NCBI RefSeq assembly: GCF_964194155.1
Contig: NC_135907.1
Span: 21,266,001 to 21,330,000, forward strand
Direction of reading: 5' to 3'
Source of the DNA: Cetorhinus maximus
Lineage: Eukaryota
Length of the DNA stretch: 64,000 bases
A program made the position numbers and the translations under genes. The number at the start of each line of letters is the position of its first letter. The stretch's first letter is position 1. Under the pieces are notes generated by a model, which saw only the letters and a program-made list of their open reading frames with translations, did not search any database and was not told the origin of the DNA. This document shows, piece after piece, positions 6,490 through 48,787 of this stretch.

Positions 6490-7201
<712 letters not shown>

Positions 7202-7224
7202 TTAGCCAGAGAAGACCAGAATTC

Positions 7225-17606: not shown

Positions 17607-17744
17607 CTGGAAGAAAATGAAATCAGACTCTGTTTATTGTGCATAAAGTACTAATTGCTTTGAAGCTGAAAGATAATCTAGTTGTCCAGGCGTGAACCAC
17701 TCAGGGCAAGTTATACAAGTTTGTTCATGTCTCCTATTGATAGA

Positions 17745-18180: not shown

Positions 18181-18255
18181 TGCAGGTCCGTTATAATCCA
18201 TTGAAGGATCTAACCTGTGGGGTCTATCGAAACGCTTCTTCCTTCCAAGAGCCTA

Positions 18256-18893
18256 GGGCAAAATTATCCCCCCCGTCAGGGGGTAAGAGAGGGAGCGGGC
18301 ACGAGCGGGCGGGTTCCTGATCAGTGACCCCACTATGCGCTCCCTGTGAGGGCAGGGAGGATTCCCTCAGCCGGGAGTGCGCTCTTTCGCGCATGTATGC
18401 AAAACAGCGCACAGATCTCCCTGATGCTAAGTGCTGCCTCAGGGAAATAGGCTCAGATTTTCAACTTTTAATAAAGGAGTTTAAAAATTTTCCCTGGCAT
18501 GGCCCCTCACGTGACACTGTCACATGAGTTGGGACATGTCCATCACTTTTATTTAAACCTTTCATTAAAATTTAAATACCCTCATGGAACCTCATCCCGC
18601 CAGTGGATGAGGTTTCGTGTTTATTCACAAGCCCGCCAGGGTTCCCGGCCTGCCCGCCAACCTTAAGGTTGGAGGGGCAGGTCCATTAATGAGCTGAATT
18701 GGTTTCCTAATGGCCGTTAGTAGGCCGTTGACAGGTCGGCGGGCGCGCATCCAACTCGGCTGCGCCCCCGCTGGCCTGAAAATGGAAATGGCGCAGGGTG
18801 CCATTGGGAGTTCCACCCGACGTCACCCCGCGTCATTTTACACGTCGGCGAGCAGGCCCCGCGCCCCCACTCACCGACCGGAAGATCCTGCCC
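18256..18893. mobile_element. Non-autonomous DNA transposon, probably PIF/Harbinger-like
   Basis: Imperfect TIRs gggcaaaattatcc / ggaagatcctgccc, each flanked by cta (3-bp duplication); CpG-rich interior. Confidence 0.55.
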
Positions 18894-19249
18894 CTAGTGC
18901 TTTAGAACACCAATGTGACCATTAATGGAGCCAGGATTGGCCAGTTCCAAAATATCCCATCTCCCTTCCCCTATGTCCAAACAGTCAGTTTACTTGTCCA
19001 AATGAAGCAGAAAAGCCGAAGAGAGTTAAACAGCTTCAAACGTTGAGTTAAAGTAAGACTTGAGGACACACAACGGATCCTCTAATTTAATGACCAGTTA
19101 GGAAAGCTCCTGCACCAGGTAGGAGCAGCTAAACTTACCACAAAGAGGGAGGCAGTACCACAGCAACACGCTTGCAGAGCTTTGAAATCCTGACGATTGC
19201 TGGCAGCAAGGTTTTCAGAAATGGTCACCACCTCCGTTTTGGGCAAAAT

Positions 19250-20985: not shown

Positions 20986-21015
20986 CCTACATATTTTTTT
21001 TTTCTGAATACTTAC

Positions 21016-21141
21016 ATGAGGGTCAGATCTATCTTTGGACAGTTTGTATAGCTCCAGCAGGCTTTGGTTAATATTCTTCTCCAGTTGTAGAGCACATTGC
21101 ATTGCCGAAAGACCATTGTCCCAGTCCTCTTGCTCGGGTCT
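21016..21141 (-). CDS. Ferritin locus C, exon 3 ([42 protein letters not shown])
   Basis: 126 nt, ctctag acceptor, gtaagt donor. Confidence 0.93.
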
Positions 21142-21234
21142 CTAGAGAGACAAGTGTAGCCTGGTTAGTGACGGTCATGTTTATGTACAAGGGAAGCAAA
21201 AAACTCACAGCATTCCATGGATTCTAGGTTATCA

Positions 21235-21720
21235 TTCAATAGGTTGTTCCCTGGGATGAAGAGGCTGTTTTATGAAAAAAAGGTTGAGTAGGTTGGGCCT
21301 ATACCCATTGGAGTTTAGAAGAATGAGAGGTGACTTTATTGAAACATATGAGATTCTTAGGGGGTTTGACAGGTTGGATACTGAGAGGATATTTCCCCTC
21401 ATCTAGAACAAGGGGCACAGTTTCAAAATGAGGGGGTTTCCCTTTTAAAACCGAGATGAGGAGGAATTTCTTCCCTGAGAGGGTCATTAGTTCATCTTTG
21501 GAATTCTCTACCCCAGAGAGCGGTGGAGGCTGGGCCATTGAATGTATTCAAGGGTAAGTTAAACAGATTTTTGACCTACGAGGGAGTCGAAGGTCACGGG
21601 GGACTGGCAGGAAAGTGGGATTGAGGCCATGATCAGGTCAGCCAAGATCTTATTGAATTGTGGAGCAGGCTGGAGGGGCTGAGTGACCTACTCCTGCTCC
21701 TATTTCTTATGTTTCTATGC
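21235..21720 (+). mobile_element. CR1 3' fragment
   Basis: gagtttagaagaatgagaggtga... body and cctactcctgctcctatttcttatgttt tail shared with other CR1 copies. Confidence 0.7.
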
Positions 21721-22191
21721 AGGCATCATATCCATTTTCCCAGCTAGCTTTTTGGTGCTGGTAAATATGCAGAGGTTGAGCTGATGGGCAGTAACACTGC
21801 GGAATGAAGATTTTCCCACTTTGCTCGTAATTGGATACAAAAATATCGAGAGCCGTACGCACTGCTCCAGTCTAATGGGAAGCAGAGATAACGCAGAAGT
21901 TCAGTAATGAAACGCATCAGAGAATAAGGCAAAGAGAAAACAGAGACAGTGCAGGACTTCAGTTGCACCAACATGCTTATATCCTAATCCCAGAAGAGCA
22001 TTCCTTCCTGCTCTAGTGTGACGTTTCCCTAGCATAATTTAATTAGATTCTATAGGGAGTAGTGAACAGAGAGCAGTTTTGTTCAAGAATTCTTTCAGAA
22101 GCTGACTGTAAAACTGCACGAGTTAATAACCAGTTTGCTTTAGACACTTTAAAATAAGTGAGCAGACTCTGATTCACTTGGTAGTACACAG

Positions 22192-22624
22192 CTTGAGAAT
22201 TGCTGAAAAAAAGAGACACGCTTGTCAAAGCTTTTCATCTTGCACTCATCAGGACAGACGCAACAATACCAAATACCAAATTCTGCAACCAGAAAGAATA
22301 TATCCAGATATTGTGCCTTTTTCAATTAAGCAAAAGCATGGGGGAGCAACGGATCACTAGTGAATTCTTCATAGCAACACCTTGACCAATCAGTCGACTT
22401 GCCTTTTTCAATTAAACAAAAGCATGGGGGAACAGCAGATCACTGGTGCATCCTCCATGGCAACATCTCGACCAATCAGAGTCCACTCGCCAACCAATTA
22501 GCATTTTTTTTCTCATGCAGTATAAATTGTTCTTCCCTTTGAAATTTGGTATTCTTGCATCTGTCCTGATGAGTGCAAGATGAAAAGCTTTGACAGCATG
22601 TCTCTTTTTTCAGCAATACTTAAG
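22192..22624. mobile_element. Penelope-like (family 2) terminal-repeat unit with ~80-bp inverted ends, each carrying a hammerhead motif
   Basis: 22199-22275 is the reverse complement of 22545-22617; internal ~68-nt tandem duplication (ttcaattaa...catggggga). Confidence 0.75.
22553..22596 (+). ncRNA. Minimal type I hammerhead ribozyme motif (family 2) with pseudoknot potential
   Basis: CTGTC-CTGATGA-G(TGCAAGA)T-GAAA-AGCT-TT-GACAG; stem I CTGTC/GACAG; loop TGCAAGA is complementary to upstream TCTTGCA. Confidence 0.65.
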
Positions 22625-22693
22625 TTGACTCTGTTCACAACATTTGTCACATAACGAAAGCACATTCCAAATGGTTGTTTTCTACAGACTAAC

Positions 22694-22840
22694 TTTGATA
22701 TCTTGCAGGGTAATATGGCCCCCTCGCTGATTCTGAAATTTCATCAGCTTCTCCGCCTGCTCACGTTCCTTGTCCGAGTGCTTCTTGAAGAATTTCGTGA
22801 AGTTGTCCAGAGCAATGTCACCTCGGTCAAAGTAATATGA
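22694..22840 (-). CDS. Ferritin locus C, exon 2 ([49 protein letters not shown])
   Basis: 147 nt, ttgcag acceptor, gttagt donor; E61K and H65Q equivalents. Confidence 0.93.
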
Positions 22841-25800
22841 CTGCAAAACAGTGTACAGGGTGGGGAGAAATTAATGGAAAATGAATCCATTTGGTTCCCG
22901 AAGTGAGATAATCTGCTTCCTGGAATAGAAAGATACAGAGGGAACAGCAAAGCTTCAATTTTACCTTGGGGTATGAGTGTCACTGAAAAGGCCATCATTT
23001 ATTGTCCATCGCTAATTGCCCTTGAGTAGTTTTTGATGGGCCACCTTCTTGAACCGCTGCAGTCCATGTGGTGCAGAGGGCAGGTAAGAGTCAACCATAA
23101 TGCTGTGGGGCTGGAGTCACATGTAGGCCGGACCACATAAGAATGGCAGATTTCCCACCCATGAAGGTCACTAATGAACCAAATGGGCTTTTACAATAAT
23201 TTGGTAGTTTCGCGATGATTATTACTGAGGCTAGCATTTTATCCTGGATTTATTAGTTAATTGAAGTTATACTCCCCCATGATGGGATTCGAACTCATGT
23301 TTAAGATCATTAGTCCGGGTCTCAGGGTTACTAGTCCAGTAACATTATCACTATGCCACCATCCCTTTGTTCCATAATATACTTCTTATCATTGTTGTGC
23401 CTGTGCAAAATAGTAATTTTTTTGCACTAGAGAATTAGCAAAAAAAATATTTTGCTTCCCCCACATATCCATCCAGCATTATCAGAAGACAAATGCTCTT
23501 TAGAATCGGGGATATATCAGTAATGACTTGGTTTAATGGCCAGCTAATTATTAAAACACATATTAAAACAGAAATGCCTCAGCTCCCTCTGGTCAAGAGA
23601 TGTTTACAATCTGTTACCATTTAGACAGATTCAATCCCTCATTCCCTTCATGCAAACACATCCCTATCCATTTTAATGGGAATTCATGTAAGTAAGCGCA
23701 CACCCAAAGCAGTTCAATATCCATTTCATTACTAACAAGGCCTTCCCATTCAACTGTGACAGGACAGCCATTAGCACAGTTTAAAAAAATGGGCGGACAT
23801 GGTACTGAGTTCCCTTTTTATTAGCTGAAAATTTGGGGACGGTTTCAACTACTGTAGGATCTGTTGGGCCATCGAAAAAGGACAAAAGATTGTTCCCAAA
23901 GACCAAGTTCCTATAAGCAGAACAAGAAGCGGGGAAGATTATTTCAGGCAGTGTTGTCTTAGAGAGCTTAGGTAGACTTAGTTTAAATTTTCGATTATTT
24001 GTAACCATCTCATTGACCAACCCCACCCCCCCCACCACCCACCCAACCAGCCACCCCACTGCTCTCTCTGAGCATAGGTTGTGCCCCAAAACTTGTCCTT
24101 TTTCTAGAATTTTGTACGGGTGAAGGGTGTGACTCTCTGGGAAACTTGAGATTTCTGAACAAGAATTCGGCCTTTCCATCATTGACCAGTGAAATGGGAA
24201 ATGACCTTGCACCTCAATGGCACCTTGATAACACCTCGGCACACTGAATTCCTTCAGGTTACCAAATTAACTCCCGGGGTGGGGAGAGGGTGGAATACAA
24301 AGTGGCAGAAACGACAAATGGTGCTATTGATGCCAAGTGAATTACACCAGCAGTTTCAAGCACTATAGAATCTCAAAGTCTTCCCTTCACTGTAGCTGGG
24401 TCAAAATCCTGAAACTACCTACCTAGCAGCTCTGTGGGTATACCTACATGGACTGCAGCAATTCAAGAAGGCCGCTCACCACCACCTTCTCAAGGGCAAT
24501 TAGGGACGGGCAATAAATGCTGGCCTAGCCAAGCGACACCCACACCCTGCGGAAAGGATTAAAAAAAGAGGAAGACATGGATGTGAAAGGGTGTAGAGGA
24601 GATATACCAGAATGGTTCCAGGGATGAGAGATTTTAGCTACAAGGTTAGATCACAGAAGCTGGGCTCGATCTCTTTAGGCCAAAGGTGATTTGATAGAGC
24701 TATACAAGATAATTACAGGTGTAGGTAAGGTAGACAAAGAAAAGTTGTTCCCATGTCCTGTGGGACACAGTTTTCTGGTTTTGGGCAAGTGATATGGGGG
24801 GCGGCCTGTGAGGAAAAACATTTTAATGCTGCGTGTGGTTTGTTGCTTACAAGGGTGGTGAAAGCAGAGACAATCATTGATTTCAAAAGGAAATTGGATG
24901 GGCACTTGTGTCAAATATACTTATGGGGCAATGGCGATAGAGTGGGGCAATGGGACTGACTGGATTGCTCAACAGAGCCGGCATGGACTCGATGGGCTGA
25001 ATGGCCTCCTTCTGTGTCATAATGACTCTACAATTCCATGTCATGCTCTGGTCACCACGTATGGCAACATTGCCATAACGTTTCATGTTCAGTATTTATA
25101 ATTAGATTGTGAACTCATTATATCAGAAATAGTCAACAGATATTATTGATAAACCACTTGACCAGTTGCTAACACATAATGACAAGAGCAATTCTACCCC
25201 GACCTGTTTATGAACGGACACAATTGGCTCACACCATTACACAACCTATTAAGAGGCGAACGTTTTCTCACTGGTCAGTCGTTAGTCTGTTAAGAATTTG
25301 GGAAAATTGTATCCATAAACACTTGTTGACAACATATGGTAGCTTGTGAGAATACACATTGTGAGAATACACATTGTGAGAATACACATTGCAGAAATTC
25401 ACCACTGGAATCAGTAGCTTTGCTTTGAGGGGGATTTTTGATCTTTGTGGGGAGATCTTCCCCCTTGTGCCACGTTGACAAAAAATAAATCTGTGGGTGT
25501 TAGGCAGCGTGAAAGAAAAAGAAGGAGTTGCATTTATATAGCACCTTTCCCCCCAGGAATCCCAAGGTCATTTTTGAAATACTTCTTGAGATGTATATCC
25601 ACTGCTGTAACGTAGGCATCCTGCACTTTTTAATCACGTTTAATCATTTACTGTAAACATAGAGAAATAAATGTACCGCCAGGCTTTCACTGAGGCCTCT
25701 GTTCAGCAAGATTCAGGTTTGACCATTTAACGCACTCATAATATTCCTTAAATGCTATTTTACAACAGGAGTTATCTGACATTAACCACAATGTTAAACA

Positions 25801-26080
25801 GCACACCCAGGAATGTAGTCTGAGCACCTTAAAAACGTTCTACTCCAAGATTTAATTAATCCCAGAATTTGTCAACGCATCGAATGGTGGGTGACCAGAG
25901 TTGTCACATATACAGGACTGGGAAATAATTATTTTTCAAACTTAATCTAAGCAAAAATAACCAAAAAAAATTGTTTCTTCCTGCAATTCATCACTGACTC
26001 TTTAAAGGGAAACGTACCTTTTGAAAATACCTACATGAATTCATTCAAGTGCCAAACTTAAAGAGATTTGCAGAACTCAC

Positions 26081-26182
26081 CATGGAGATGTAAACATATG
26101 AAGCGTAGAGTTCCATGTTGATCATGCGGTTGACAGCACTCTCACAGTCCTTGTGGTAGTTCGAACGCATATTGTGGTCCAT
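26081..26182 (-). CDS. Ferritin locus C, exon 1 ([34 protein letters not shown])
   Basis: ggcATGG start at 26182, 102 nt, gtgagt donor. Confidence 0.92.
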
Positions 26183-30684: not shown

Positions 30685-32949
30685 TAGCAATGGTGCTGTT
30701 GTTGTCTGGCGCACTGACCTCTACCTCGCAGAGGCTGAGCGTCAACTCGCAGACACTTCCTCCTACCTCCCCCTGGACCATGACCCCACCACTGAACATC
30801 AAGCCATTGTTTCCAGGACTGTTACTGACCTCATCTCCTCTGGAGATCTTCCTTCCACAGCTTCCAACCTGATAGTCTCCCAACCTCGGACGGCCCGCTT
30901 CTACCTCCTACCCAAAATCCACAAACAGGACTGTCCCGGCAGACCGATCGTGTCAGCCTGTTCCTGCCCCAAGGAACTCATTTCTTGCTATCTTGACTCC
31001 ATTCTCTCTCCCCTTGTCCAGTCCCTTTCCACCTACATCCGTGATTCCTCTGACACCCTACATCACATCAACAATTTCCAGTTCCCTGGCCCCAACCGCC
31101 TCCTCTTCACCATGGACGTCCAATCCCTCTACACCTCCATCCCCCACCAGGATGGTCTGATGGCTCTCCGCTTCTTCCTTGAACAGAGGCCCGAACAATC
31201 CCCATCCACCACTACTTTCCTCCGTCTGGCTGAACTTGTTCTCACACTGAACAATTTCTCCTTAAACTCTTCTCACTTCCTCCAAATAAAAGGTGTGGCT
31301 ATGGGTACCCGCATGGGCCCCAGCTATGCCTGTCTCTTTATGGGGTATGTGGAACATTCCTTGTTCGAGTCCTACTCCGGCCCCCTCCCACAACTCTTTC
31401 TCCGGTACATCGATGATTACTTCGGTGCTGCTTCATGCTCTCGCCTGGACCTGGAAAAATTTATTAATTTTGCTTCCAATCTCCACCCCTCCATCATTTT
31501 CACATGGTCTATCTCTGACACTTCCCTTCCCTTCCTTGACCTCTCTGTCTCAATTTCTGGTGATAGACTGTCCACCAATATCCATTACAAGCCTACTGAC
31601 TCCCACAGCTACCTCGACTACAGCTCCTCACACCCCGCTTCCTGTAAGGACTCCATCCCATTCTCTCAGTTCCTTCGCCTCCGTCACATCTGTTCTGATG
31701 ATGCCACTTTCAAAAACAGTTCCTCTGACATGTCCTCCTTCTTCCTTAACCAAGGTTTTCCACCCACAGTGGTTGACAGGGCTCTCAACCATGTCCGGCC
31801 CATCTCCCGCGCATCCACCCTCACACCTTCTCCTCCTTCCCAGAAACATGATAGGGTCCCCCTTGTCCTCGCTTATCACCCCACCAGCCTCCGCATTCAA
31901 AGGATCATCCTCCACCATTTTCGCCAACTCCAGCATGATGCTACCACCAAACACATCTTCCCTTCACCCCCCCGGTGGCATTCCGCAGGGATCGTTCCCT
32001 CCGGGACACCCTGGGCCACTCCTCCATCACCCCCTACACCTCAACCCCTCCCTCGGCACCTTCCCAAGCAACCGCAGAAGGTGCAACACCTGCCCCTTTA
32101 CTTCCCCCCTCCTCACCGTCCAAGGGCCCAAACACTCCTTTCAAGTGAAGCAGCATTTCACTTCCACTTCCCTCAATTTAGTCTACTGCATTTGTTGCTC
32201 CCAATGCGGTTTCCTCCACATTGGAGAGACCAAACGCAGACTGGGTGACCGTTTTGCAGAACACCTTCGGTCTGTCCGCAAGCATTACCCAGACCTCCCT
32301 GTCGCTTGCCATTTCAATACTCCACCCTGCTCTCATGCCCACATGTCCGTCCTTGGCCTGCTGCAATGTTCCAGTGAAGCTCAACGCAAACTGGAGGAAC
32401 AGCACCTCATCTTCCGACTAGGCACTTTACAGCCTTCCGGACTGAATATTGAGTTCAACAATTTTAGATCATGAACTCTCTCCTCCATCCCCACCCCCTT
32501 TCCGTTCCCCCCCCCACCCCCACTTTTTTTCCCAATAATTTATATAGATTTTTCTTTTCCCACCTATTTCCATTATTTTTAAATGTATTTCCAGCCATTG
32601 TTTTATCTCTACCTTTTAGCCTATTTCGATTCCTTCACCCCAACCCCACTAGGGCTATCTGTACCTTGCTCGTCCTGCTTTCTACCCTTAATTAGCACAT
32701 TCCTTTAGATAATATCACCGCCTTCAACACCTCTTTGTCCTTTTGTCTGTGACATCTTTTGGTTATCTCCACCTCTCACTGGCCCTTTATCCAGCTCTAC
32801 TTGTCCCACCACCCCTTAAACCAGCTTATATTTCACTTATTTTTAATTAGTTCTGTTGAAGGGTCATTCGGACTCGAAACGTTAACTGTGTTCCTCTCCG
32901 CAGATGCTGCCAGACCTGCTGAGTTTTTCCAGGTATATTTGTTTTTGTT
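30685..32949 (+). mobile_element. Penelope-like retroelement (family 1): RT plus GIY-YIG endonuclease, 5'-truncated, one frameshift
   Basis: RT motifs FYLLPKIHK, MDVQSLYTSIP, GVAMG, RYIDD; GIY-YIG-like NLVYCICC...HIGETKRRLGDRFAEH...GLN. 15-bp TSD taagatctggaatgc at 30670-30684 and 32950-32964, inside a CR1 fragment. Frameshift at a C7 tract near 31970, which is C8 in the 52961 copy. Confidence 0.93.
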
Positions 32950-33227
32950 TAAGATCTGGAATGCAGTGCCTGAATGGAGGCAGATTCAATCGGGAGTTTT
33001 CAAATGTAATCAAACAAGCTCCCGAAGAGAAAAAAATTGCAGGGCGATGGGGAATGGGCCAGGCAGTGGGACTAGGTGAGTTGCATTTGCGGAGAGCCAG
33101 CATGGACACGACAGGCTGAATGGCTTCCTTCCATTCTGTATTATGAGTTATGAGTTATCTGTTATGAGTCTATAAGCAGCCTGAGCTAAAATAATAGATC
33201 ACAGCCAGTGGGAAGATCAAGATGCAT

Positions 33228-33581
33228 TGTCTGCCACACCCAACATGGCATAGGGCCTGCCACACCCAACATGGCGTAGGGCCTGCCACACCCAACATGG
33301 CGGACAAACAGGACAGGACTCGAGTTGATACCACTCAAAATGGCGGACGATGCTCGACGATGGGCGCGCCACACTCAACATGGCGGCCGCACGGCCCCCA
33401 TCTCCACAATATCCTTCCTTCCCAATATGGCGGAAGCCAGCTAGCTGCCCGCCTACGCCACCGTTGACCAATCAGCGGCCTCGGATCCGGTGGCGCACGC
33501 CCCACCCCCCCCTCCCCCCACGTTGAGGGACGGGCGTCGTGGGCGGTGCCTTGCGCGCACCCGCGGCTTGTGCGCGCTCCT
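33228..33581 (+). promoter_or_regulatory. CpG-island promoter of locus D with clustered YY1-like sites and a CCAAT box
   Basis: CAANATGGCG at 33267, 33293, 33336, 33376 and 33423; GACCAATCAG at 33466-33475; GC-rich; no TATA seen. Confidence 0.7.
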
Positions 33582-33857
33582 ATGGGCAGGCTGTGGAGCC
33601 TCTTACCCGGCCTGTTGTTGGGCCTACAGTCTGGCCGCCGCCTCCTCCACCCCTTCCAGTGCCCACCCTGCTGCTCTCCCGCCGCCGGGCGGCTGTGGAG
33701 GGGGCCGCAGGTCCACGGAGGCGGCCAAGCGGGCCAGTGCCAGGGCCGGGGCCGGGGCCAGAGCCAGAGCCGCCAGAACTACCCGAGTAAATGTGAGGAT
33801 GGCATCAACAGCCAGATCAACCTGGAGCTCAGCGCCTCCTACGTCTACCTGTCCATG
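33582..33857 (+). CDS. Ferritin locus D, exon 1: 60-aa N-terminal leader plus SQSRQNYPSKCEDGINSQINLELSASYVYLSM (candidate mitochondrial or secreted ferritin, 234 aa total)
   Basis: The only in-frame ATG before the ferritin core is at 33582; open 276-nt exon ending ATG|gtgaga. Confidence 0.88.
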
Positions 33858-33869
33858 GTGAGAGTCTAA

Positions 33870-35330
33870 CACATCACAAGAGGGAATCCCAGTAGATAAT
33901 CCCAGCAGGTAATCCACATCCCATCAGATAATCCCATCAAGTAATCCACATCCCATCAGGTAATCCACATCCCAGCAGGTAATCCACATCCCATCAGATA
34001 ATCCCATCAAGTAATCCACATCCCATCAGGTAATCCACATCCCAGCAGGTAATCCACATCCCATCAGATAATCCCATCAGGTAATCCACATCCCAGCAGG
34101 GAATCCACATCTCAGCAGGTAATCCACATCCCAGCAGGTAATCCACATCCCAGCAGGTAATCCACATCCCAGCAGGGAATCCACATCCCAGCAGGGAATC
34201 CATATCCCATCTGATGATCCCAGCAGGTAATCCACATCCCATCAAATAATCCCAGCAGGTAATCCACATCCCATCAGATAATCCCAGTAGGTAATCCACA
34301 TCCCAGCAGGGAATCCACATCCCAGCAGGTAATCCACATCTCAGCAGGAAATCCACATCCCATCAGATAATCCCAGCAGGTAATCCACATCCCAGCAGGA
34401 AATCCACATCCCATCAGATAATCCCAGCAGGTAATCCACATCCCAGCAGGAAATCCACATCCCATCAGATAATACCAGCAGGTAATCCACATCCCATCAG
34501 ATAATACCAGCAGGGAATCCACATTCCAGCAGGGAATCCCAGCACATCCCAAGAGGGAATCCCAGCACTTCCAAGCAGGGAATCCCAGCAGGTAATCCGC
34601 ATCCCAAGAGGCAGTCCCGGCACATCCCAAGAGGGAATCCCAGAAGATAATCCCAGCACATCCCATACAACTCAGGATCCAGCAGATCCCATTCAACCCA
34701 ACACATTGCAGGATTGGAATCCCAGCAGATGCTCACTGTTCAATACATTCCAAGAGGGAATCACAGCACATCCCAGCAGGGAAAACACATACAAGGAGAG
34801 AATACAACAGGTACCATTCAACCCAACACACCCCTGGTAGGGAATCCCAGGAAAAATCCAGCACATCCCATAGAGCACAACACATCTCAACAGGGAATCC
34901 AGCACATCCAGTGGTAAATCTAACACAGACCCAATCGCAGCAGAAAAAACAGCCAATCCCATACAACATAGCATAACCCAACTGTAAAATCCCAGCACCT
35001 CCTCACTGTCGAGCATATCCCAGCAGGGAATTCCAGCAGACCCTTACTGTATAACACAATCCAGCAGGAAATCTGGAAATCCCTTACAATTTAGCATACC
35101 CTACTGTCTAGAGAAACACCAGCCAGCACATCCCATGCAATCTAGAATATTGCTTCAATCTCAGTGGAGAAACCAGCACATACCCCACAGTACCAACAGA
35201 GAAATCTAGTACATTCCCACACAATGTAGCATATCCCGCATAGCACCAGCAGAGGAACCAAGTATATCCCCTCACAATCCCAGCACATCCCATTACACAA
35301 TTTCAGTGTATTCCCTCAATCCCAGTCCAA
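33870..35330. repeat. Minisatellite in locus D intron 1 (19-nt gtaatccacatcccagcag with shorter ataatcccatcag variants), decaying towards the 3' end
   Basis: Direct tandem repeats, homogeneous at 33890-34520 and diverged after; similar units reappear at ~38220-38340. Confidence 0.92.
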
Positions 35331-35334
35331 AATG

Positions 35335-38205
35335 TAGAATCAATTTGGGTGGAAATAAATAGCAAAGCAAAGAAGTCACTGCTGAGAGTGGTTTATAGGC
35401 ACCCTAACAGTAGCTACTCTGCAGGACTGTATAAATCAAGAAATAATGGGGGGAGGGGTGGGTGCTTGTAAGAAAGTTACTGCAATAGCAGTTTAATGGG
35501 GGGATTTTAATCATATAGATTGCACAAATGAAATTGGCAAAAGTAGCCTGAAGGATGAGTTCATAGAGTCTAATTGGGACAGTTTCTTAGAACGATATGT
35601 TCTTGAACCAACCAGGGTACAGACTATTTTAGACCTGGTAATGTGTAATTAATCAGGATTAAGTATTGACCTCATAGTAAAGGATCCTCCAGGTAAGAGT
35701 GATCATAACATGGTAGAATTTCACATTCAGTTTGAGGGTGAAACTAGTCTTGGACTTAAATAAAGGCGATTACATGGCTATGAAGACAGAGTTGGCGAAA
35801 GTGGAATGGGGAAAACAGTTAAAAGGTAAGACAGTAGAGAAGCAGTGGCAGACATTTAAGTAGATATTTAATAGCTCTCGACAAAGATATATTCCATTGA
35901 GAAAGGAAGGTGCTACGAGAAGGACGCCCCATCTGTGGCTAACTAAGGAAGTTAAGGATGGTATCAAATTGAAAGAAACATGTACAATACTGCAAAGATT
36001 AGATGACCAGAAGATTGAGAAAATTTTAGAAGCCCGTAAAGGATGACTAGAGAAATAATAGGGAGAAAATGGAATATGAGAGAAAATTAGTAAGAAACTT
36101 AAAACAGACAATGAAAGCTTTACAAGAATATAAAAAGGAAGAGAGTAGCTAAAGTAAGTGTTGGTCCCTTAGAAGGTGGGACTGGGGAATTAATAATGGG
36201 AAACAAAGAACTGTCAAAGACTTTGAACAAGCATTTTGTATCTGTCTTCATGGTAGAAGACACTTAAGGCATATCAAGAACAGTAGAAGATCAAGAGACA
36301 AATGGGAGGGAGGAACTTAAAACAATCACGATTACTAGAGAAAAAGTACTAGGAAAGCTAACGGGACTAAAGGCTGATAAGTCCCTTGGACCTGATGGCC
36401 AGCATAGAGTCATATATGACACAGAAGGAGGCCCTTTTTGCCCGTTGCACCCGTGCCAGTTCTCCGCACAGCAATCCAGTCAGTCCCCCACTTGATCCCC
36501 ATACCCATAAGGTCTTAAAGGAAATGGCTGCAGAGATAGTGGACGCATTGGTTGTAACCTTGCAAAATTCCCTAGATTGTGGTAAGGAGCCAGGGGAGTG
36601 GAAAGCCACAAATGTAACCACAGTATTCAAGAAAGGAGGGAGACAGAGAAAGCAGGAAACTGTAATAAAAGCAAAATACTGTAGATGCTGGAAATCTGAA
36701 ATAAAAACAGGAAATGGTGGAAAACTCAGCAGGTCTGGCAGGGTCTGTGGAAAGAGAAACAGAGTTAATGTTTCGACCCCGTACAACTTCTTCAGAACTG
36801 AAGAGAGGTAGAAATGTGATGGGTTTTATGCTGTTGAAGAGAGGGGGTGGAGCAGATGGAGACTACCGTCTAGCTTTTGTCATTGGGAAAATGCTAGATT
36901 CCATTATAAAGGAGATAGTAACACATTTATGAAAATCATAATACAGGCGGAGTCACTATGGTTTTGTGAAAGGGAAAATGTATTTGACAAATTTATTAGA
37001 GTTCTTTGAGGATGTAACAAGTAGGGTGGATAAAGGGGAACCAGTAGATGTAGTATATTTGGATGTCCAAAAGTCATCCAATAAGGTGCCACATAAAAGG
37101 TTAGTGGACCAGATAAGAGCTCATGGTGGTGTGGGTGATATATTAGCATGAATAGAGGATTGGCTAACTGACAAGAAACAGAAAATCGGGATAAGTGGGT
37201 CTTTTTCAGATTGCAAGCTGTTAACTAGTGGAGTACCACAGGGATCAATGCTGGGACCTGAACTATTTACTATCTATTTTAATGACTTGGATGAAGGACT
37301 GTATTGCAGCCAGCTTTGCAGATGGTAAAACGATAGGTTGGACTGCAAGTTGTGAGGAGGATACAATTTGGAAAGGGATATAGGTAGGTTAAGTGAGTGG
37401 GCAAAAAAATTGGCAGATTAAGTGTAATGTAGGAAAATATTTGGTTGTCTTCTCTGGCAGAAAGAATAGAAAAGCAAACTATTATTTAAATAGTGAGAGA
37501 CTGCAGAATGCTGCAGTACACAGGGATCTGGGTGTCCTTGTACATGAATCAGCAAGTAATGAGGTAAGCAAATGGAATGTTGTTCTTTATTGCAAGGGGG
37601 ATGGAGTATAAATATAGGGAAGGCTTGTTACAGTTGGACAGGACATTGGTGAGGCCACACCTGGAGTGCTGTGTATAGTTTTGGTCTCCTCACTTAAGGT
37701 GGGATATAGTTACACTGGCAGCAGTTCAGAGAGGATTCACTGGTCTGATTCCTGGGATGAAGGGGTTGTCTTATGAGGAAAGGTAAAGTAGGTTGGGCCT
37801 ATACACATTGAATTTGAGAAGAATGAGAGGTGATCTTACTGAAACAAATAAGATTCTGAGAGGACTTGACAGGGTAGATGCTGAGAGGATGTTTCCTGTC
37901 ATGGGGAAATGTAAAACTAGGGGGCGCAGTTTCAAAATAAGGCCCCCCCCCCCACCGCCATTTAAGACAGTAAGGTCAAAGGGTCATTAGCCTTTGGAAT
38001 TCTCCAGAGAGAGCAGTGGAGGCTGGGTCATTGAAGATGTTCAAGGCTGAGGTGGACATATTTTTGATTGACAAGGGAGCTAAGGGTTATGGGAGACAGG
38101 CAGCAATGTGGAATTATGGCCACAATCAAATGAACCATGACCTTATTGAACAACAGAGTAGGCTCTAGGGCCGAATGGCCTACTACTGCTCCTATTTCTT
38201 ATCAT
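35335..38205 (+). mobile_element. Old CR1 LINE (endonuclease and RT remnants) with nested insertions
   Basis: Remnants KEMAAEIVDALV, LTNLLEFFEDVTSRVDKGEPVDVVYLD, RRMRGDL; a Penelope end is inserted at ~36663-36860. Confidence 0.85.
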
Positions 38206-39394
38206 CATGGTCATTGTCTCTCAGTCCCAGCGCATCCCACATGCAATCCTGGTGCATCCCCTATCAATCCCAGCACACCTGTTAACAAACCAGTACAGCC
38301 CCCTCACAACCCAGCAGACTTTGCAAATCCAAATGCAACATGTAATCTAGTTGATTTAGAATAAGCACAGGAGATTTGTTTCAAACCTAACAGCCTTAAA
38401 TGAGGCTGAAGATTAGAAGCCACCAAGGAGTATTTATAGAGAGGACTCTCCCCTAATATAACTGAGACTAAGTCCATCATCTTTATTTAAAGTAGGAACA
38501 GGATAAAATAAAAGCAAAATACTGTGATTGTTGGAAACAAATAAAAACAGCATCCGTGGAGAGAGAAACAGAGTTAACTTTTCAGGCTGAGTTGTCATCC
38601 AAACTGGAAGATTATTGAGACTAATGATCTTTGAGCAAGGACAGAACATAAATATAGTTTGGATTGGAATTGGAAGTTATATGAATAGATAGAAACTGAA
38701 CAAATTACATCAACTCACACTCCTCTCAGGTTTTTTCTTTGTAATTTCTTTTGCCCTGTTTATAATGTATGTAGGCTTGTCATGTTGTACTTATACCTTT
38801 CTGTCAGTAGAGGTGCTGCAGAGCCTCCAGTGGCAGGAGGGTGTAACAGCAGTGTGACATGTTTACACAGGCACTTTCATTGTTAAAGAAAGAACTTGCA
38901 TTTATATAGCTCCTTTCCCAATCTCAGGATATCCCAAAACACTTATCAGCCAATTTGCATACAGCAAGCTTATGCAAACAATAATGAGTTAATGACTAAA
39001 TACCTGGATTTGTTTTAGTGATTTTGGTTGAGGGATAAATATTAGCCAGGACACCAGGGATAACTCTCACGCTCTTCAAAATATTGCCAGTGGATCTTGC
39101 AAATCCACCTGAGAGAAAAGACAGTTTAGCCTCAGTTTAGTGTCTCACCTACTACAGTGCAGTGCTCCCAACTACAATGGAATTGTCACATCTCTGGACT
39201 GTGCGCAAACCCATAACCTTATGACTCGGGGTGAGGGCTACTCACTGAGGCACAGCTGGCACTTAGGTATTCTTATTTGCCCTGAGAAGATGGTGTGGGA
39301 TTGTTTCTTGAAGCACTGAAGTTCTTGTGGTGATGGGCCTCTCACAATCGTATTAGGTAGTGAACTGTAGGAGATGGCAATGATGAAGCACAAT

Positions 39395-40265
39395 GATTGC
39401 ACAATTTTTCAGCACCATTCGCGACTCCTCAGATATTGAGGCAGTCCATGTCCAAATGCAGCAAGACCTGGACAATATTCAGGCTTGGGCTGACAAGTGG
39501 CAAGTAACATTCGTGCCACACAAGTGTCAGGCAATGACCATCTCCAAAAAGAGAGAATCCAACCATCGCCCCTTGATGTGCAGTGGCATTACCGTCACTG
39601 AATCCCCCACTATCAACATCCTCAGGGTTACCATTGACCAGAAACTGAACTGGACTAGCCATATAAATACTGTGGCTACAAGAGCAGGTCAGAGGCTGGG
39701 AATCGTGCAACGAGTAACTCACCTCCTGACTCCCCAAAGCCTGTCCACCACCTACAAGGCACAAGTCAGGAGTGTGATGTAATACCCTTCACTTGCCTGG
39801 ATGAGCACAGCTCCTACAACACTGAAGAAGCTGGACACCGTCCAGGAGAAAGCAGCTCCGCCTGATTGGCACCACATCCACAAACATTCACTTCCTCCAC
39901 CACCGACACACAGTAGCAGCAGTGTGCACCATCTACAAGATGCACTGTAGGAATTCACCAAGGCTCCTTAAGACAGCACCTTCCAAACCCATGACTGCTA
40001 CCATCTAGAAGGACAAGGGCAGCAGATAGATGGGAGCACCACCACCTGGAAGTTCCCCTCCAAATCATTCACCATCCTGACTTGGAAATATATCGCCATT
40101 CCTTCACTGTCGCTGAGTCAAAATCCTGGAACTCCCTCCCTAATAGCACTGTGGGTGTACCCACACCACATGGACTGCAGTGGTTCAAGAGGGCAGCTCA
40201 CCGCCACCTTCTCAAGGGCAACTAGGGATGGGCAATAAATGCTGGCCCATATCCCATGAATGAAT
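39395..40265 (+). mobile_element. CR1/L2-clade LINE 3' fragment (second LINE family)
   Basis: ORF QQDLDNIQAWADKWQVTF...YKAQVRSVM; tail cccatgaatgaatg. Confidence 0.85.
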
Positions 40266-40371
40266 GAAAACAAAAGGAAGTGTGAGGTTATGTTCGTGTC
40301 GGAATGGTGTGCACCTTGGAGGTGAGGGTGTTCTGAAATCTGCCATTATGCATTGTTCTTTTCTGCTTCAG

Positions 40372-40518
40372 TCCTACTACTTTGACCGGGATGATGTTGC
40401 TTTGAAAAACTTTGCAAAGTTTTACTTGGAGCAGTCGCTTGAGGAACAGGAACATGCTGCAAAGCTGATGAAGTTTCAGAACCAGCGTGGAGGCCGCATC
40501 ATCCTGAAGGACATCAAG
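40372..40518 (+). CDS. Ferritin locus D, exon 2 ([49 protein letters not shown])
   Basis: 147 nt, cttcag acceptor, gttagt donor; E61/E62/H65 equivalents intact. Confidence 0.95.
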
Positions 40519-40627
40519 GTTAGTGGGAGGGCGATCTCTCCGTCCTCTTCTTCCCCTTCCCACCCACTTCTCCCCAGTGTTAAGAAATTTCCATCAACTC
40601 CAATGAGCCAGTTGTCTTTATTCCTAG

Positions 40628-40753
40628 AAACCCCACCGGGATGAATGGGGCAACGGCTTGGAGGCTATGGAGCATGCCCTGCAGCTGGAGAAAGCTGTCA
40701 ACCAACGTCTCCTGGACCTGCACAAACTGGCATCCGAACAGAACGATCCTATT
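40628..40753 (+). CDS. Ferritin locus D, exon 3 ([42 protein letters not shown])
   Basis: 126 nt, tcctag acceptor, gtgagt donor. Confidence 0.95.
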
Positions 40754-40882
40754 GTGAGTTGTGCGACCCTCACCAAATCTTGGCCACCCTGAATTGGTGT
40801 ATAAACTTATTGCCCTTCGAGCAGATATCTGCGTAGATATGATCGAAATGTTCAAAGTTATGAGATGTTTGGTTAGAGTAAA

Positions 40883-42540
40883 TAGAACCATAGAACACTA
40901 CAGCACAGAAAACAGGCCATTCGTGCCAAAATATTATTCCGCTAATCCCATTGACCTGCACCCAGTCCATAACCCTCCAGATCTCTCCCATCCATGTATC
41001 TATCCAATTTATTCTTAAAACTTAAGAGTGAGCCCGCATTTACCACGTCAGATGGCAGCTCGTTCCACACTCTCACCACTCTCTGAGTGAAGAAGTTCCC
41101 CCTAATGTTCCCCCTAAACCTTTTCCCTTTCACCCTAAAGCCATGTCCTCTCGTGTTTATATCTCCTAATCTAAGTGGAAAGAGCCTACTCGCATTTACT
41201 CTGTCTATACCCCTCATAATTTTGTAAACTTCTATCAAATCTCCCCTCATCCTTCTATGCTCCAAGGAATAAAGTCCTAACCTGTTTAATCTTTCCCTGT
41301 AACTCAACTCCTTAAGACCCAGCAACATCCTAGTAAATCTTCTCTGCACTCTTTCAATCTTACTGATATCCTTCCTGTAGTTAGGCGACCAGAACTGCAC
41401 ACAACACTCCAAAGTTGGCCTCATCAATGTTTTATACAACCTCACCATAACATCCCAACTCCTATACTCAATACTTTGATTTATGAAGGCCAGTATGCCA
41501 AAAGCTTTCTTTACAACCTTGTCTACCTGTGACGCCACTTTCAGGGAATTATGTATCTGAACTCCCAGATCCCTTTGTTCCTCCGCACTCCTCAGTGCCC
41601 TACCATTTACTGTGTATGTCCTACCTTGGTTTGTCCTTCCAAAATGCAACACCTCACACTTTTCTGCATTAAATTCCATCTGCCATTTTCTGGCCCATTT
41701 TTCCAGTTGGTCCAGATCCCTCTACAAGCTTTGAAAGCCTTCCTCGCTGTCCACAACGCCTCCAATCTTAGTGTCATCAGCAAACTTGCTGATCCAATTT
41801 ACCACATTATCATCCAAATCATTGATATAGACAACAAACAACAATGGTCCCAACACAGATCCCTGAGGCACACCACTAGTCACAGACCTCCAGTCTGAGA
41901 AGCAATCATCCACTATCACTCTCTGTCTTCTCCCACACAGCCAATTTCGAATCCAGTTTGCAACCTCTCCATGGATACCAAGTGTTTGAACCTTCTGAAC
42001 TAACCTCCCATGTGGGACCTTGTCAAAGGCCTTACTGAAGTCCATGTAGACAACATCCACAGCCTTTCCTTTCCTTCTTGGTAACCTCCTCGAAAAACTC
42101 TACAAGGTTCGTTGAACACGACCTACCACGCACAAAGCCATGCTGACTATCCTTAATCGGCCCTTGGCTGTCCAAATAATTGTATATCTGATCTCTCAGA
42201 ACACCTTCCAATAATTTACCTACTACTGACGTCAGGCTCATTGGCCTGTAATTACCTGGTTTATTTTGGACCTTTTTTTAAACAACGGAACAACATGAGC
42301 TACCCTCCAATCCTCCGGCACCTCACCCGTGGCTAAGGACATTTTAAATATTTCTGCCAGGGCCCCTCAATTTCTACACTAGTCTCCCTCAAGGTCCGAG
42401 GGAATATCATGTCAGGCCCGGAGGATTTATCTACCTTTTTCGCTGTAAGGCAGCAAGCACCTCCTCCTCTTTAATCTCTATATGTTCCATGACACTACTG
42501 CTTGTTTCCCTTCCTTCCTTATACACTATGCCAGTTTCCT
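40883..42540 (-). mobile_element. CR1 LINE ORF2 3' part (RT), nested in an older CR1 fragment
   Basis: ORFs with YMDFSKAFDKVPH, GVPQGSVLGP, KFADDTKIGG, CVQFWSP; tail agaaccatagaac on +. Confidence 0.92.
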
Positions 42541-43369
42541 GAGAAACTTTCTCCATTGGAGGGTTGGTAACCAGGTGACACAGATTTAAGATAAGTGGCC
42601 AAAGAAACAGAGGGGTAGATGAAGAATGAAAACCTTAATGCAGCAAGTTGTTGTGATTTGGAATGTGCTGCCTGACAGAGCAGTGGAAGCAGATTCAATG
42701 GTAATTTTCCAAAGGCAATTGGATAAATACTTGAAAAGAAAATGTTTGAAGAGCTTTGGGAAATGAGTAGGGGAGTGGGGTGAGTTAGTTAACTGTTTCA
42801 TAGAGCTAGCACAGGCACGATGGGCTGAAAAGCTTCCTTCTATGCTGTACAGTTTTCTGACTAAACTTAGAAGGGGAGAACTCAACAAAGAGCATGACCT
42901 TGCCTACTTTTGCTCACTGTGGGTGGGTAAAGATTATTAAAATGTTCCGTGATTCATTGATTGTTGCTGGATAAGGAAGGGTAGCACATGAAACTCGCCC
43001 ATCATTTACTTTGTAAGATGTGGACAGAAGTTCCACCCAGAAAGGGCAGAACCCCCACTTAGTTACATCCTTGCAATTATAGAAGCTGTTACCATATTAG
43101 CGACCCAGCAGTAAGCACTGAGCGGCGAATGTCATATTTCCAAACACCTTAGATTAGTTCGTACCTATCAGAAAATCCCTCTCTGGCCAATTGGATGAAT
43201 TCTCATAATTTTATAACCATTCCACAGAAAGGAACAAACCTGAAGTGTGGAAATTTGATTCTCATGTGGGCAAATACAACAGCTTTCATTTATATATAGT
43301 GCATTTTACACAACAAATGCTCCAGGGGCATTAATCTGACAAGGTTTGACACTGACCCTCATGAAGGGG

Positions 43370-43760
43370 AGATGGTGGCGTGGTGGCAATGTCACTGGGC
43401 CAGTAATCCAGAGACCCAAGCTAATTCTCTAGGGGCACCGGTTCAAATTCCACCATGGCAACTGGTGGAATTTTAAAAATGCAATTAATAATATCTCAAG
43501 TTGAAAGCTAGCCTCAGTAATGGTGACCATAAAACTATTATTAACTGTTGTAAAAATCCACCTGGTTCACTAATGCCCAGTAGGGAAGAAAGCCTGCTAT
43601 CCTTACCCGGCCTGGCCTACACGTACTCCAGATCCACAGCAATGTGGTTGACTCTTAACTGCCCTCTGAAATGGCCCAGCAAGTTACTCGTTCAAGGGTA
43701 ATTAGGGATGGGCAATAAATGCTGGCCTTGCCAGCGACACCCACATCCCATGGAAGAATA
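43370..43760 (+). mobile_element. tRNA-derived SINE
   Basis: A/B box-like head; same family as 26955 and 60670. Confidence 0.75.
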
Positions 43761-44187
43761 AATTACGTTAGATGACCAAAGCTCGATCAAAGAGGTTTTA
43801 AGGAGCATCTTAAAAGAGGAGAGGTTTAGGGAGGGAATTGGTCTTAGGGCCTAAGCAGCTGAAGGGTTACCAGTGTTGGAGTGATAAAATCAGGGCTGCA
43901 AGAAACCAGAACTGGAGGAGAGCAAAGATCTCCAAGGGTCTTTTGTTTTGGGAGATTCAGAGTCAGGATCTGGTAATAAAGAACTATCTAACCGGTTGTG
44001 AACAATTTCTTGAAATGTGTTTCACTAATCAACTGGATAATGCGAATGAATTGAGGTTGGTTATTCTAAATCCATCGTGAGGGTCTGGTAGTAGTAGTTT
44101 TAGACCTAAAACGGGAGTGTCCCCTGTTGGTGAAGTAAGTTACAATATGGAGAGACTCTTCAACACTGCATTTTCTTCCTGTTTTAG

Positions 44188-44343
44188 CTGTGCGAATTCC
44201 TGGAGTCAAACTACTTGAATGAGCAAATTGAGGCCATTAAGAAGCTTGGAGATCATATTACCAACTTGAAGCGATTGGGTGCTCCTGAGAATGGCATGGG
44301 AGAATACCTGTTCGACAAGCACACCCTGGGGGAGAGCAGTTAA
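44188..44343 (+). CDS. Ferritin locus D, exon 4 ([51 protein letters not shown])
   Basis: ttttag acceptor, 156 nt, TAA at 44341-44343; AATAAA at 44625-44630. Confidence 0.95.
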
Positions 44344-44754
44344 TGATGGGTTACATTTGGCCAACTTGGCTCATTAGGGTACGGCTTGCATCTGTTAAGT
44401 CTGCCTTTCCTCATTTTCCACAAACTCATCATCCTGACTGGCCAGAAAGGGTTCCATTGTTCAACGGGGCTGTAAACCTTGCTGTCCCATGTGTTAAGTT
44501 ATAGCACCGTTATTACCAAAATGGTTGTGGTAAATGCAGTGTGGCATTAAAGTGAATCCCTTGTGGTGACAATAACCCATTGGACAAGCTCTCTGGAAAG
44601 AACACACTTTGCAATCTGTTCCCAAATAAAAGCTGTTAAACCTTTACCGTTTTGCCTCTCAATGCTTCTTGGATCCACAAGGAAGACTAGGGCCCCTTTT
44701 CACACAGAGAATGTTGCACCAACCGTGCATATGGATGAACTCCTAAAGGTGCTT

Positions 44755-46911: not shown

Positions 46912-47067
46912 TTAGCTGCTCTCTTCCAGGGTATGCTTGTCAAAGAGATATTCAGCCATGCCATTCTGGGGTGCCCCCAAGCGTACCAGGTTGGTGATGA
47001 AATCCCCAAGCTTTTTGATAGCCTGGACCTGCTCATCCAAGTAGTGAGTCTCCAGGAAGTCACACAT
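46912..47067 (-). CDS. Ferritin locus E, exon 4 ([51 protein letters not shown])
   Basis: tcctag acceptor, 156 nt, TAA at 46912-46914; AATAAA (-) at 46646-46651. Confidence 0.96.
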
Positions 47068-47497
47068 CTAGGATAGAAAAAAAAAGGTCATCGTTAATAT
47101 TCACGACTTTTAAACGAAAAATGAACCTAACACTGAAGTGCTTATTATTTGGACGGTGGTGGAGTATTTTAAATCAGTTCTTCTTTGGCTGTTTTAAATT
47201 AAGACAATAGTTCTCCTCAAGGAGGATTTAGGTAGTCAATTATGCTGACAAATGGAGAAATGTGAAATTTTATTCCACTCAAATTCAGCATCCACCACTT
47301 GCCAAAAGAAAAAATCTTCTGTTCGAGGTAAGCCAGTAAATACTAACATTTTACAGTCCAAAAACGACGGTGCTTCCCAGACTAAAAGTCTACAATCGAC
47401 AGAGCCTCAGCCTTCCTTGGTGGGAGGGATCGTTTAAAAAAGCAAGACAGAAACCGGCCTTGGGCAGAACAAAGAGAATCAAGAGGTTGATACGTAC

Positions 47498-47623
47498 GTG
47501 AGGGTCGACCTTGTCAGAAGCCAGTTTGTGGAGTTCGAGGAGGGACTGATTCACAGTCCTCTCCAGGTGCAGGGCGCACCTCATCGCTTCCAGACCATTG
47601 CTCCACTCATCCCGGTCAGGTTT
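47498..47623 (-). CDS. Ferritin locus E, exon 3 ([42 protein letters not shown])
   Basis: 126 nt, ccctag acceptor, gtacgt donor. Confidence 0.96.
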
Positions 47624-47743
47624 CTAGGGAGGGGGTGGAGGGGGAAAGAAAAAGATTAGGTCACAAATTAAAACACAAACCCCTAACAACAGGAAAAAGG
47701 TCAGGGTGATGTATTGTGGTTGGGAAGCCAGCCTTGTACTAAC

Positions 47744-47890
47744 CGACACGTCCTGCAGAATGACACGGCCCCCACGCTGGTTTTGGAATTTCATCAGCTT
47801 TTCCGCATGTTCCCGTTCCTCGTGGGACTGTTCCTTGAAAAACTTGGCGAAATTCTTCAGGGCAACGTCATCCCGGTCAAAGAAGGCATA
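47744..47890 (-). CDS. Ferritin locus E, exon 2 ([49 protein letters not shown])
   Basis: 147 nt, (CT)n tract plus cag acceptor, gttagt donor. Confidence 0.96.
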
Positions 47891-47962
47891 CTGGGGAAAG
47901 AGAGAGAGAGAGAGAGATAGAGATAGATAAAGTGAATCTGGAACTAAGCACAAGAAAACATA

Positions 47963-48058
47963 AACAACTCCCCCCCTTTTATACAACCTCGAGATTCCTC
48001 CCCCCCTTTTATACAACCTCGAGATTCCTCCCCCCACTTTTATCCAACCTCGAGATTC
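47963..48058. repeat. ~30-nt tandem repeat x3 in locus E intron 1
   Basis: Unit ccccccttttatacaacctcgagattcctc. Confidence 0.85.
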
Positions 48059-48455
48059 TGCTATGAAAAGCAAGGCTGCTGGAAATTAAACCATTGCAGT
48101 TACAACTGGTGGGAACCGCAGAACAAAAAAGAAATGATCCGCTCACCAGCTAACTGATCATTAACAGGGTTTTACAATATATAAAAAAAAACAAGCCAAG
48201 CGTTTTAAAGCTGAGATACAGCTTCCCCTTGTTGCACTCCAGCATTACACAGGCTGGTGTTGAACGGGCGGGGGGAAGGAAGTGAAATATCACGACAACA
48301 AAAAAGGTCACAACTCAACCCAACCCAACTCAACTCAACAGGGTTTCTTGCAAGATGGGGTTTAACCTAGAGAATGACCACCCCCCCCACCCAAAAACCA
48401 TCCCCCTGGGATTGCACCCCCCCAGAAACGCTTGTATTAGTTTGCTTCGCCTTAC

Positions 48456-48557
48456 CATGGACATGTAGACATAAGAAGCGTATAGCTCCATGTTAATCTG
48501 GCGGTTGATCGCCGCTTCGCAATCCTGGTGGTAATTCTGGCGGATTTGAGAAGTCAT
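48456..48557 (-). CDS. Ferritin locus E, exon 1 ([34 protein letters not shown]); canonical 176-aa middle/heavy-type ferritin
   Basis: aagATG start, 102 nt, gtaagg donor; all ferroxidase ligands present across the exons. Confidence 0.96.
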
Positions 48558-48717
48558 CTTGATCTGCAGCGATTGTCCAAAAAATAAGCAACAAAAAAAA
48601 AAGTTGGGGGGGGAAGAGAAGAAGAAAAGTTGGGCAAGTTGACAAAATAAAGTGTTAAAATGGCTTTTTTTTTTAAAATAGGAGGGGGGGGGATTTAAAA
48701 ATACGAAGTTTGGGTTC

Positions 48718-48749
48718 TATTCCGTTCAAACACTGTTGAAGCAAGAATA
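48718..48749 (-). promoter_or_regulatory. Iron-responsive element (IRE) in the 5' UTR of locus E
   Basis: UAUUCU-UGC-UUCAA-CAGUGU-UUGAA-C-GGAAUA: ferritin-type UGC/C bulge, 5-bp upper stem, CAGUGU loop. Confidence 0.96.
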
Positions 48750-48787
48750 CAACCCGGATTCTGTGCTACTGTCCAGCCAGCGCCTGG

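Follow-up and report, generated by a model that had tools for sequence, protein, structure and literature searches.

Does a shark ferritin gene that has lost the ordinary initiator methionine, and that begins instead with a long arginine-rich leader, encode a ferritin destined for mitochondria? The question is raised by a gene in a 64,000-nucleotide stretch of the basking shark (Cetorhinus maximus) genome (contig NC_135907.1, positions 21,266,001 to 21,330,000; this whole stretch is called the window, and positions are counted from its first letter). A first-pass annotation of the window had proposed that the gene product, here called the leader ferritin, is a convergent counterpart of the mammalian mitochondrial ferritin FTMT or, alternatively, a secreted ferritin. 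By sequence comparison the leader ferritin is an intact, single-copy ferritin paralogue that sharks and rays have in common, and its ferroxidase site is complete. Its leader is probably a cleavable presequence for the mitochondrial matrix, which would make it an elasmobranch mitochondrial ferritin separate from FTMT.

Gene structure

The four exons join through GT-AG, phase-0 introns into an open reading frame of 234 amino acids (Table 1), and the product is identical to the basking shark RefSeq protein XP_078387947.1, named 'ferritin heavy chain B-like isoform X1'. The reading frame is closed upstream by a TGA at 33465, the ATG at 33582 is the only one in frame between this stop and the RQNY motif of the core, and the next, at 33855, would cost the protein its helix A; Gly59 occupies the position at which the paralogues have their methionine. 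The first-pass annotation was thus right to start translation at 33582, to count three normal introns and to list seven intact ferroxidase ligands (E27, Y34, E61, E62, H65, E107 and Q141). The leader likewise holds, as it had stated, seven arginines and neither aspartate nor glutamate, over 58 residues up to the paralogues' methionine position or 60 up to the SQ.

The four-helix bundle ferritin domain (PF00210) matches H chains at an E-value of about 1e-82, and an AlphaFold model places four helices over residues 69-212 and leaves the leader disordered, with pLDDT below 50 for residues 1-63. A relative's contig that ends exactly at 33857, beside a piece reading into the intron, is a weak hint of splicing. 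Splicing of an upstream exon into the leader, at a pyrimidine-rich AG at 33659, was considered and discarded, since the start motif is itself conserved. RefSeq isoform X2 arises by in-frame skipping of exon 3, which shortens the product to 192 amino acids and removes E107, and shortened isoforms of the leader ferritin are known from Rhinoraja, Mobula and S. torazame as well.

Conservation across sharks and rays

Protein and profile searches (best 120 of 1,212 and best 120 of 2,465 matches, plus cluster look-ups) place leader-bearing proteins in 20 species among the matches listed, the basking shark included. The other sharks are a sevengill, a sawshark, a smooth-hound, two catsharks and five carpet sharks; the rays are an electric ray, a sawfish, three skates, two stingrays and two mantas. 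The gene is elasmobranch-wide rather than a one-species oddity, a breadth that the first-pass annotation had missed. The ancestral methionine is absent from all 20 species, in which the protein opens with M[GA]S[LVR] or MGRL (MGSLW-type), the Rhinoraja model carrying 48 extra residues upstream of this conserved start. Because the old methionine is lost, every full-length product would carry the leader. A leaderless orthologue was not found among 335 proteins, except for one gene model from the sawfish with an alternative first exon, and the ferroxidase ligands are invariant in 19 of 19 aligned leader ferritins. The exact little-skate precursor is also present in a Logan contig, which we infer to be a spliced transcript.

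The leaders vary in length from 22 to 58 residues through in-frame insertions and deletions and are homologous over the shark-ray split: Heptranchias and Pristis leaders align with z=14.8 and those of the basking shark and Pristis with z=4.0, while the basking shark leader compared with that of Leucoraja gives z=0.4. An arginine pair followed by glycine or alanine (RR-Gly/Ala) lies 8-9 residues ahead of the old methionine position in 13 of the 20 species. Pooled, the 919 leader residues comprise 17.2% Gly, 17.1% Leu, 15.6% Arg and 11.9% Pro, with 0.4% Glu and no Asp. The basking shark mature domain is 90% identical to that of Mustelus and sits on a short end branch (0.058). As far as gene structure and alignment can tell, the leader ferritin is a conserved elasmobranch ferritin with an obligatory leader.

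Composition of the leader and chance expectations

An arginine-rich, acid-free leader in a single species, from which the first-pass annotation had argued, is weak evidence by itself. The leader DNA is 75% G+C, and of 20,000 dinucleotide shuffles 49% stay open and 7.5% are open, lack Asp and Glu, and carry at least seven Arg or Lys. Read-through translations of the GC-rich untranslated regions (UTRs) of mammalian FTH1 look much the same (19 records with 17.9% Arg, 11 of them free of Asp and Glu). These figures are what speaks for an annotation artefact, in which translation is extended from a chance ATG through GC-rich untranslated DNA into a gene with a lost start codon. Such an artefact is nevertheless highly improbable, given that 20 species share the start motif and a homologous leader in the same frame, and that the conserved mature domain has no other methionine. 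Besides this conservation across species, it is the N-terminal hydrophobic block of the basking shark leader that exceeds chance (9 of 15 residues against 3.8 expected from shuffles, p=0.0012), together with leucine (10 against 5.6 expected from the same shuffles, p=0.022); leucine makes up 17% of the leaders and 7.8% of the 19 FTH1 read-throughs.

Other searches on the leader gave little. A peroxisomal PTS2 pattern fits none of the 20 leaders; a compensating frameshift was dismissed on the grounds that the other two frames, judged by eye, are unlike the orthologues; and an ESM Atlas search with residues 1-60 was uninformative (best score 0.75). The Gly/Gln/Arg end of the leader (33731-33771) is a repeat with a 6-bp period, matched by other contigs, that may explain the longer linker of the basking shark.

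Presequence, secretion signal or tether

The hydrophobic LLPGLLLGL block could be read, as the first-pass annotation did by way of an alternative, as an endoplasmic reticulum signal peptide that would give a classically secreted ferritin. Uncharged stretches of 15-19 residues in the basking shark, sevengill and S. canicula fit this idea, as does the excess of the block over shuffles, and signal-peptide ferritins are described as common in invertebrates in parts of PMC8395497. However, the best 12-residue hydrophobicity, a crude proxy, lies between 1.05 and 1.91 in all 20 leaders, close to the two FTMT leaders (1.41 and 1.91) and below two ferritins with signal-peptide-like N-termini (2.93 and 2.94). 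The leaders have no conserved h-region, and the longest unbroken hydrophobic run spans only 3-7 residues. Moreover, Narcine, Leucoraja and the carpet sharks either lack the block or have it interrupted by arginine, and it is followed by a basic run of 30-40 residues. Secretion is therefore improbable, and the alternative is disfavoured.

The leader might instead be translated without serving import, as a tether to a membrane or partner (through Met-Gly myristoylation, cysteine acylation or a basic patch) or as a device that limits co-assembly with cytosolic subunits. Gly2 is present in 19 of 20 species, several cysteines occur in most leaders, amphipathicity is unremarkable, and the alanine at position 144 is that of the cytosolic H chain. 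A PROSITE-type myristoylation pattern fits only five of the 20 leaders, the basking shark's not among them, while the single exception to Gly2 is an Ala2 that keeps the G at +4, so that Gly2 may reflect initiation; an arginine pair followed by a small residue near the core (13 of 20, at -8/-9) suggests cleavage. We consider a role of this kind rather unlikely.

A matrix presequence is favoured over these possibilities because the leaders have FTMT-like hydrophobicity, the block is lost or broken in some species, basic residues run throughout and the old methionine is gone. In the proposed scheme, a duplicate in an array of M/L-type ferritins would have acquired a start codon further upstream and a CpG promoter lacking TATA before the divergence of sharks and rays, and with the loss of the old methionine no full-length cytosolic form would remain. 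The precursor would pass TOM/TIM23, the matrix processing peptidase would cut near a conserved arginine (the RR-Gly/Ala motif described above), and the mature protein would form a 24-mer, oxidising iron and storing it in the matrix outside the control of iron-responsive elements and iron regulatory proteins (IRE/IRP). The fuller proposition, that sharks and rays have a mitochondrial ferritin of their own, drawn from the M/L-type array before their split, equipped with both a new presequence and a promoter of housekeeping type, and convergent on FTMT without its Ser144 chemistry, is on balance a reasonably likely one.

Several observations weigh against a mitochondrial ferritin. Position 144 is alanine in 19 of 19 leader ferritins and serine in both FTMT controls, and parts of PMC12092714 describe Ser144 as a strictly conserved feature of mitochondrial ferritins. 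All leader-bearing orthologues are gene-model predictions; the Narcine leader has only 22 residues; and neither white shark, horn shark nor elephant shark yielded an orthologue among the best 120 matches per search, though other ferritins of theirs are present. Acidic residues, counted as independent column states, number 1 of 212 against about 4 expected under a GC-rich null (p about 0.09). The helical moment exceeds shuffles (p<0.05) in three of 20 leaders, a test of little power that neither of the two FTMT controls passes, and the AlphaFold model has no helix in the leader. The basking shark leader lacks the late RR motif and reads WRG there, although it keeps Arg40.

A contig from a close relative, out of a sequencing run presumed to be RNA, adds to these points. 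It matches 33607-33857 (leader codons 9-92) with 14 differences and no gaps, four of the five listed leader differences changing the amino acid, none of them to a stop or an acidic residue; a sixth turns Tyr67 into Cys. Upstream, 642 unrelated letters, which are not in the basking shark genome within two mismatches, replace the start codon. The contig may be chimeric or may represent a disrupted copy in the relative. A broken leader frame in relatives, which would have spoken against the proposal of the first-pass annotation, is suggested at most by this contig, which diverges above codon 9; the frame is intact in the 20 species.

Such observations could also mean that the leader is degenerating in the lineage of the basking shark and targets inefficiently, the ancestral elasmobranch gene having been leader-bearing; for the family as a whole this overlaps with the presequence reading. 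Consistent with decay, the basking shark leader lacks the conserved (C/S/Y)RL as well as the late RR, its similarity to a ray leader is far below that of sevengill, and both the missing white shark orthologue and the contig without a start region point the same way. The conserved mature domain and its short end branch, the intact splice sites and ligands, and a leader that retains seven arginines, Arg40 and freedom from acidic residues all argue the other way and leave decay a slim chance.

Origin

A mature-domain tree of 67 rows (IQ-TREE, LG+G4; 15 of the 20 leader species) recovers the leader ferritins as a clade with support of 100/100. The FTMT sequences of seal and guinea pig group among the amniote FTH1 sequences (100/98), themselves part of a wider FTH1 clade (99/97) to which the FTH1 proteins of skate and elephant shark also belong. 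The leader clade lies outside this FTH1 clade, and its sister is a clade from the shark array at only 82/82, in a tree where FTL is a long branch, the outgroup is not monophyletic and M/L is unresolved. In an approximately unbiased (AU) test on 43 rows, uniting the leader ferritins with FTMT costs 43 log units (p-AU 0.029); 24 rows had been dropped for it (four invertebrates, FTL, a divergent gene of the window, a long opossum record and near-redundant sequences), and the first nine residues removed. The leader itself has no similarity to that of seal FTMT (five of five tests at shuffle level, z from -1.0 to 0.3), and a hidden Markov model of the leaders finds FTMT records only at E-values of at least 7.

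On the 26-Mb contig of the leader ferritin (C30), RUVBL2, BAX and a glycogen synthase gene (not typed as GYS1) lie 1.5-4.6 Mb from it, whereas an FTH1-like gene is on another contig, C9; BAX, GYS1 and RUVBL2 we take to be the neighbours of human FTL. Glycogen synthase genes lie at C9:88.7-88.8 Mb, C12:53.2 Mb and C30:25.9-26.0 Mb, and the C9 copy, 1.2 Mb from the FTH1-like gene, mirrors the C30 linkage. Teleost M and mammalian L ferritins are reported to be orthologues in parts of PMC4117605. Because of the tree, the AU test, the unrelated leaders, the introns and the chromosome linkage, the leader ferritin likely arose separately from mammalian FTMT.

The independent origin put forward by the first-pass annotation is thereby supported, and its proposed routes fare less evenly. 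Tandem duplication is suggested by the position in the array and, weakly, by the tree. A 5' extension found no counterpart in the UTR of the IRE-bearing paralogue (score 46 against 50+/-6 for shuffles), and a DNA search, which misses old donors, revealed no source for the leader or the promoter at other sites in the genome. Some ferritins outside the leader clade (Logan P0175, P0188 and P0190; P0154 of Gracilinanus agilis) also begin with long, basic extensions rich in Ser and Leu, and may represent additional mitochondrial ferritins that arose independently, in invertebrates and a marsupial.

Promoter region

YY1 and NRF1 are factors that drive nuclear genes for mitochondrial proteins. In the 500 bp above the ATG the CpG observed/expected ratio is 0.79 and there is no TATA motif; four YY1-type motifs (33268, 33294, 33337 and 33377) and two NRF1-like TGCGCGC motifs (33552 and 33571) were found, along with a CCAAT box at 33468. 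The four YY1-type motifs compare with 0.2 expected, but two of them lie inside a 26-bp tandem repeat, and the NRF1-like motifs reach p=0.02-0.08. Among 30 ferritin loci only that of the leader ferritin has both motif types, most others having a TATA motif 62-79 bp above the start. These motifs offer only a hint that the gene is tied to mitochondria.

Comparison with known ferritins

Like FTMT (for example seal XP_006728870.1), the leader ferritin has a basic, acid-poor leader of about 60 residues and all seven ligands, and lacks an IRE, as FTMT does according to parts of PMC8393899; the same parts report YY1 as an FTMT activator, a parallel to the YY1-type motifs found here, and no CCAAT box for FTMT, in contrast to the leader ferritin. 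Further differences are that FTMT is intronless whereas the leader ferritin has three introns, that the leader ferritin falls outside the FTH1 clade with an unrelated leader, and that it carries Ala144 in place of Ser144. The mature domains are 66% identical, and import, shown for FTMT, is predicted from sequence for the leader ferritin.

The cytosolic M/L-type ferritins of fish, amphibians and shark arrays share with it the four-exon structure (given for M/L types in parts of PMC4117605), the location in an array and, for an array member, 76% mature identity besides the weak sister relation; they differ in that array members keep the methionine, whereas the leader ferritin is single-copy, leader-bearing and preceded by CpG-rich, TATA-less DNA.

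Drosophila Fer3HCH and the plant mitochondrial ferritins are likened to the leader ferritin by description, as forms of separate origin, though outside vertebrates. Fer3HCH is reportedly intronless. That conflicts with PMC8393899, parts of which describe the Drosophila and plant forms as intron-containing and of different phylogenetic origin (separate origins also in parts of PMC11719527); repeated invention of mitochondrial ferritin is thus a known theme. In passages of these two sources, mammals, Drosophila and plants are the only groups for which a mitochondrial ferritin is listed. An expansion of shark ferritins with ovary expression has been published for the Greenland shark (bioRxiv 10.1101/2024.09.09.611499), in the main text of which the term FTMT does not occur, and passages of PMC13207978 and PMC8395497 do not describe the leader ferritin. 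A literature search, to which most subscription journals were closed, found no published description of a shark or ray mitochondrial ferritin, and the leader ferritin is apparently an undescribed elasmobranch ferritin.

If the presequence reading is true, mitochondrial ferritin would have originated a second time within vertebrates, and this one would be the first from a vertebrate that is not a mammal; its retention across both sharks and rays would show that selection repeatedly favours iron storage in the matrix. FTMT knockout mice have mild phenotypes in parts of PMC11719527, and the leader ferritin would offer a natural comparison for the purpose of FTMT, as well as for whether the mixed-valent chemistry of Ser144 (parts of PMC12092714) is needed in the matrix. 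About 20 database records named 'ferritin heavy chain-like' would then be corrected.

Features of the locus and its neighbourhood

Table 1. Features of the leader ferritin gene and of a neighbouring ferritin (window positions)
Feature	Position	Strand	Remarks
Predicted TATA-less, CpG-rich promoter and 5' UTR	33268..33581	+	Motif scan
Start ATG	33582..33584	+	Context cctATGG, pyrimidine at -3, G at +4; only in-frame ATG; aligned Met in 20/20 species
58-codon leader, predicted mitochondrial presequence	33582..33755	+	Arg40 (33699-33701) nearly invariant, candidate processing site
Coding exon 1 (leader and helix A, E27, Y34)	33582..33857	+	
Intron 1, GT-AG, phase 0	33858..40371	+	Tandem array of 19-bp period at its beginning (33899-34539)
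Exon 2 (E61, E62, H65)	40372..40518	+	
Intron 2, GT-AG	40519..40627	+	
Exon 3 (E107)	40628..40753	+	Skipped in RefSeq isoform X2
Intron 3, GT-AG	40754..44187	+	
Exon 4 to stop (Q141; Ala at 144)	44188..44343	+	
Candidate polyadenylation signals	44546..44630	+	ATTAAA (44546), AATAAA (44625)
Neighbouring conventional ferritin	46912..48752	-	Met 48557; IRE 48717-48752

No IRE was found in 32500-34000 at the Rfam gathering score or at E<=10, in agreement with the first-pass annotation; the sole Rfam IRE of the window belongs to the neighbouring gene, which is likely a cytosolic, iron-regulated member. Only two of 30 fetched ferritin exon-1 loci in the genome have a strong IRE motif, so the lack of one carries little weight. 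The same holds for the inversion noted in that annotation: the leader ferritin is indeed on the plus strand and the other four ferritin loci of the window are on the minus strand, but among the 43 matches to exon 1 in the 3.99-Gb genome both strands are represented within the array at C30:21.09-21.31 Mb. Composition, inversion and the lack of an IRE are not evidence alone, because shuffles, UTR read-throughs and array copies show the same. Array members keep their methionine, and for most of them the DNA is CpG-poor and contains a TATA motif.

The 43 exon-1 matches include three ferritin clusters, the others being at C30:15.85-15.91 Mb and C2:191.12-191.14 Mb, and three loci (L019, L034 and L036) lack an intron-1 donor and may be processed copies. 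Head-to-head with the leader ferritin, an intact-looking paralogue (17457-26179, minus strand) with a long tree branch has Lys at E61 and Gln at H65; its ferroxidase site is likely dead, and it may be predicted to serve as an L-chain-like subunit in the shark. A fragment at 7019-9123, also on the minus strand, consists of exon 3 and a truncated exon 4 only and is likely a broken copy.

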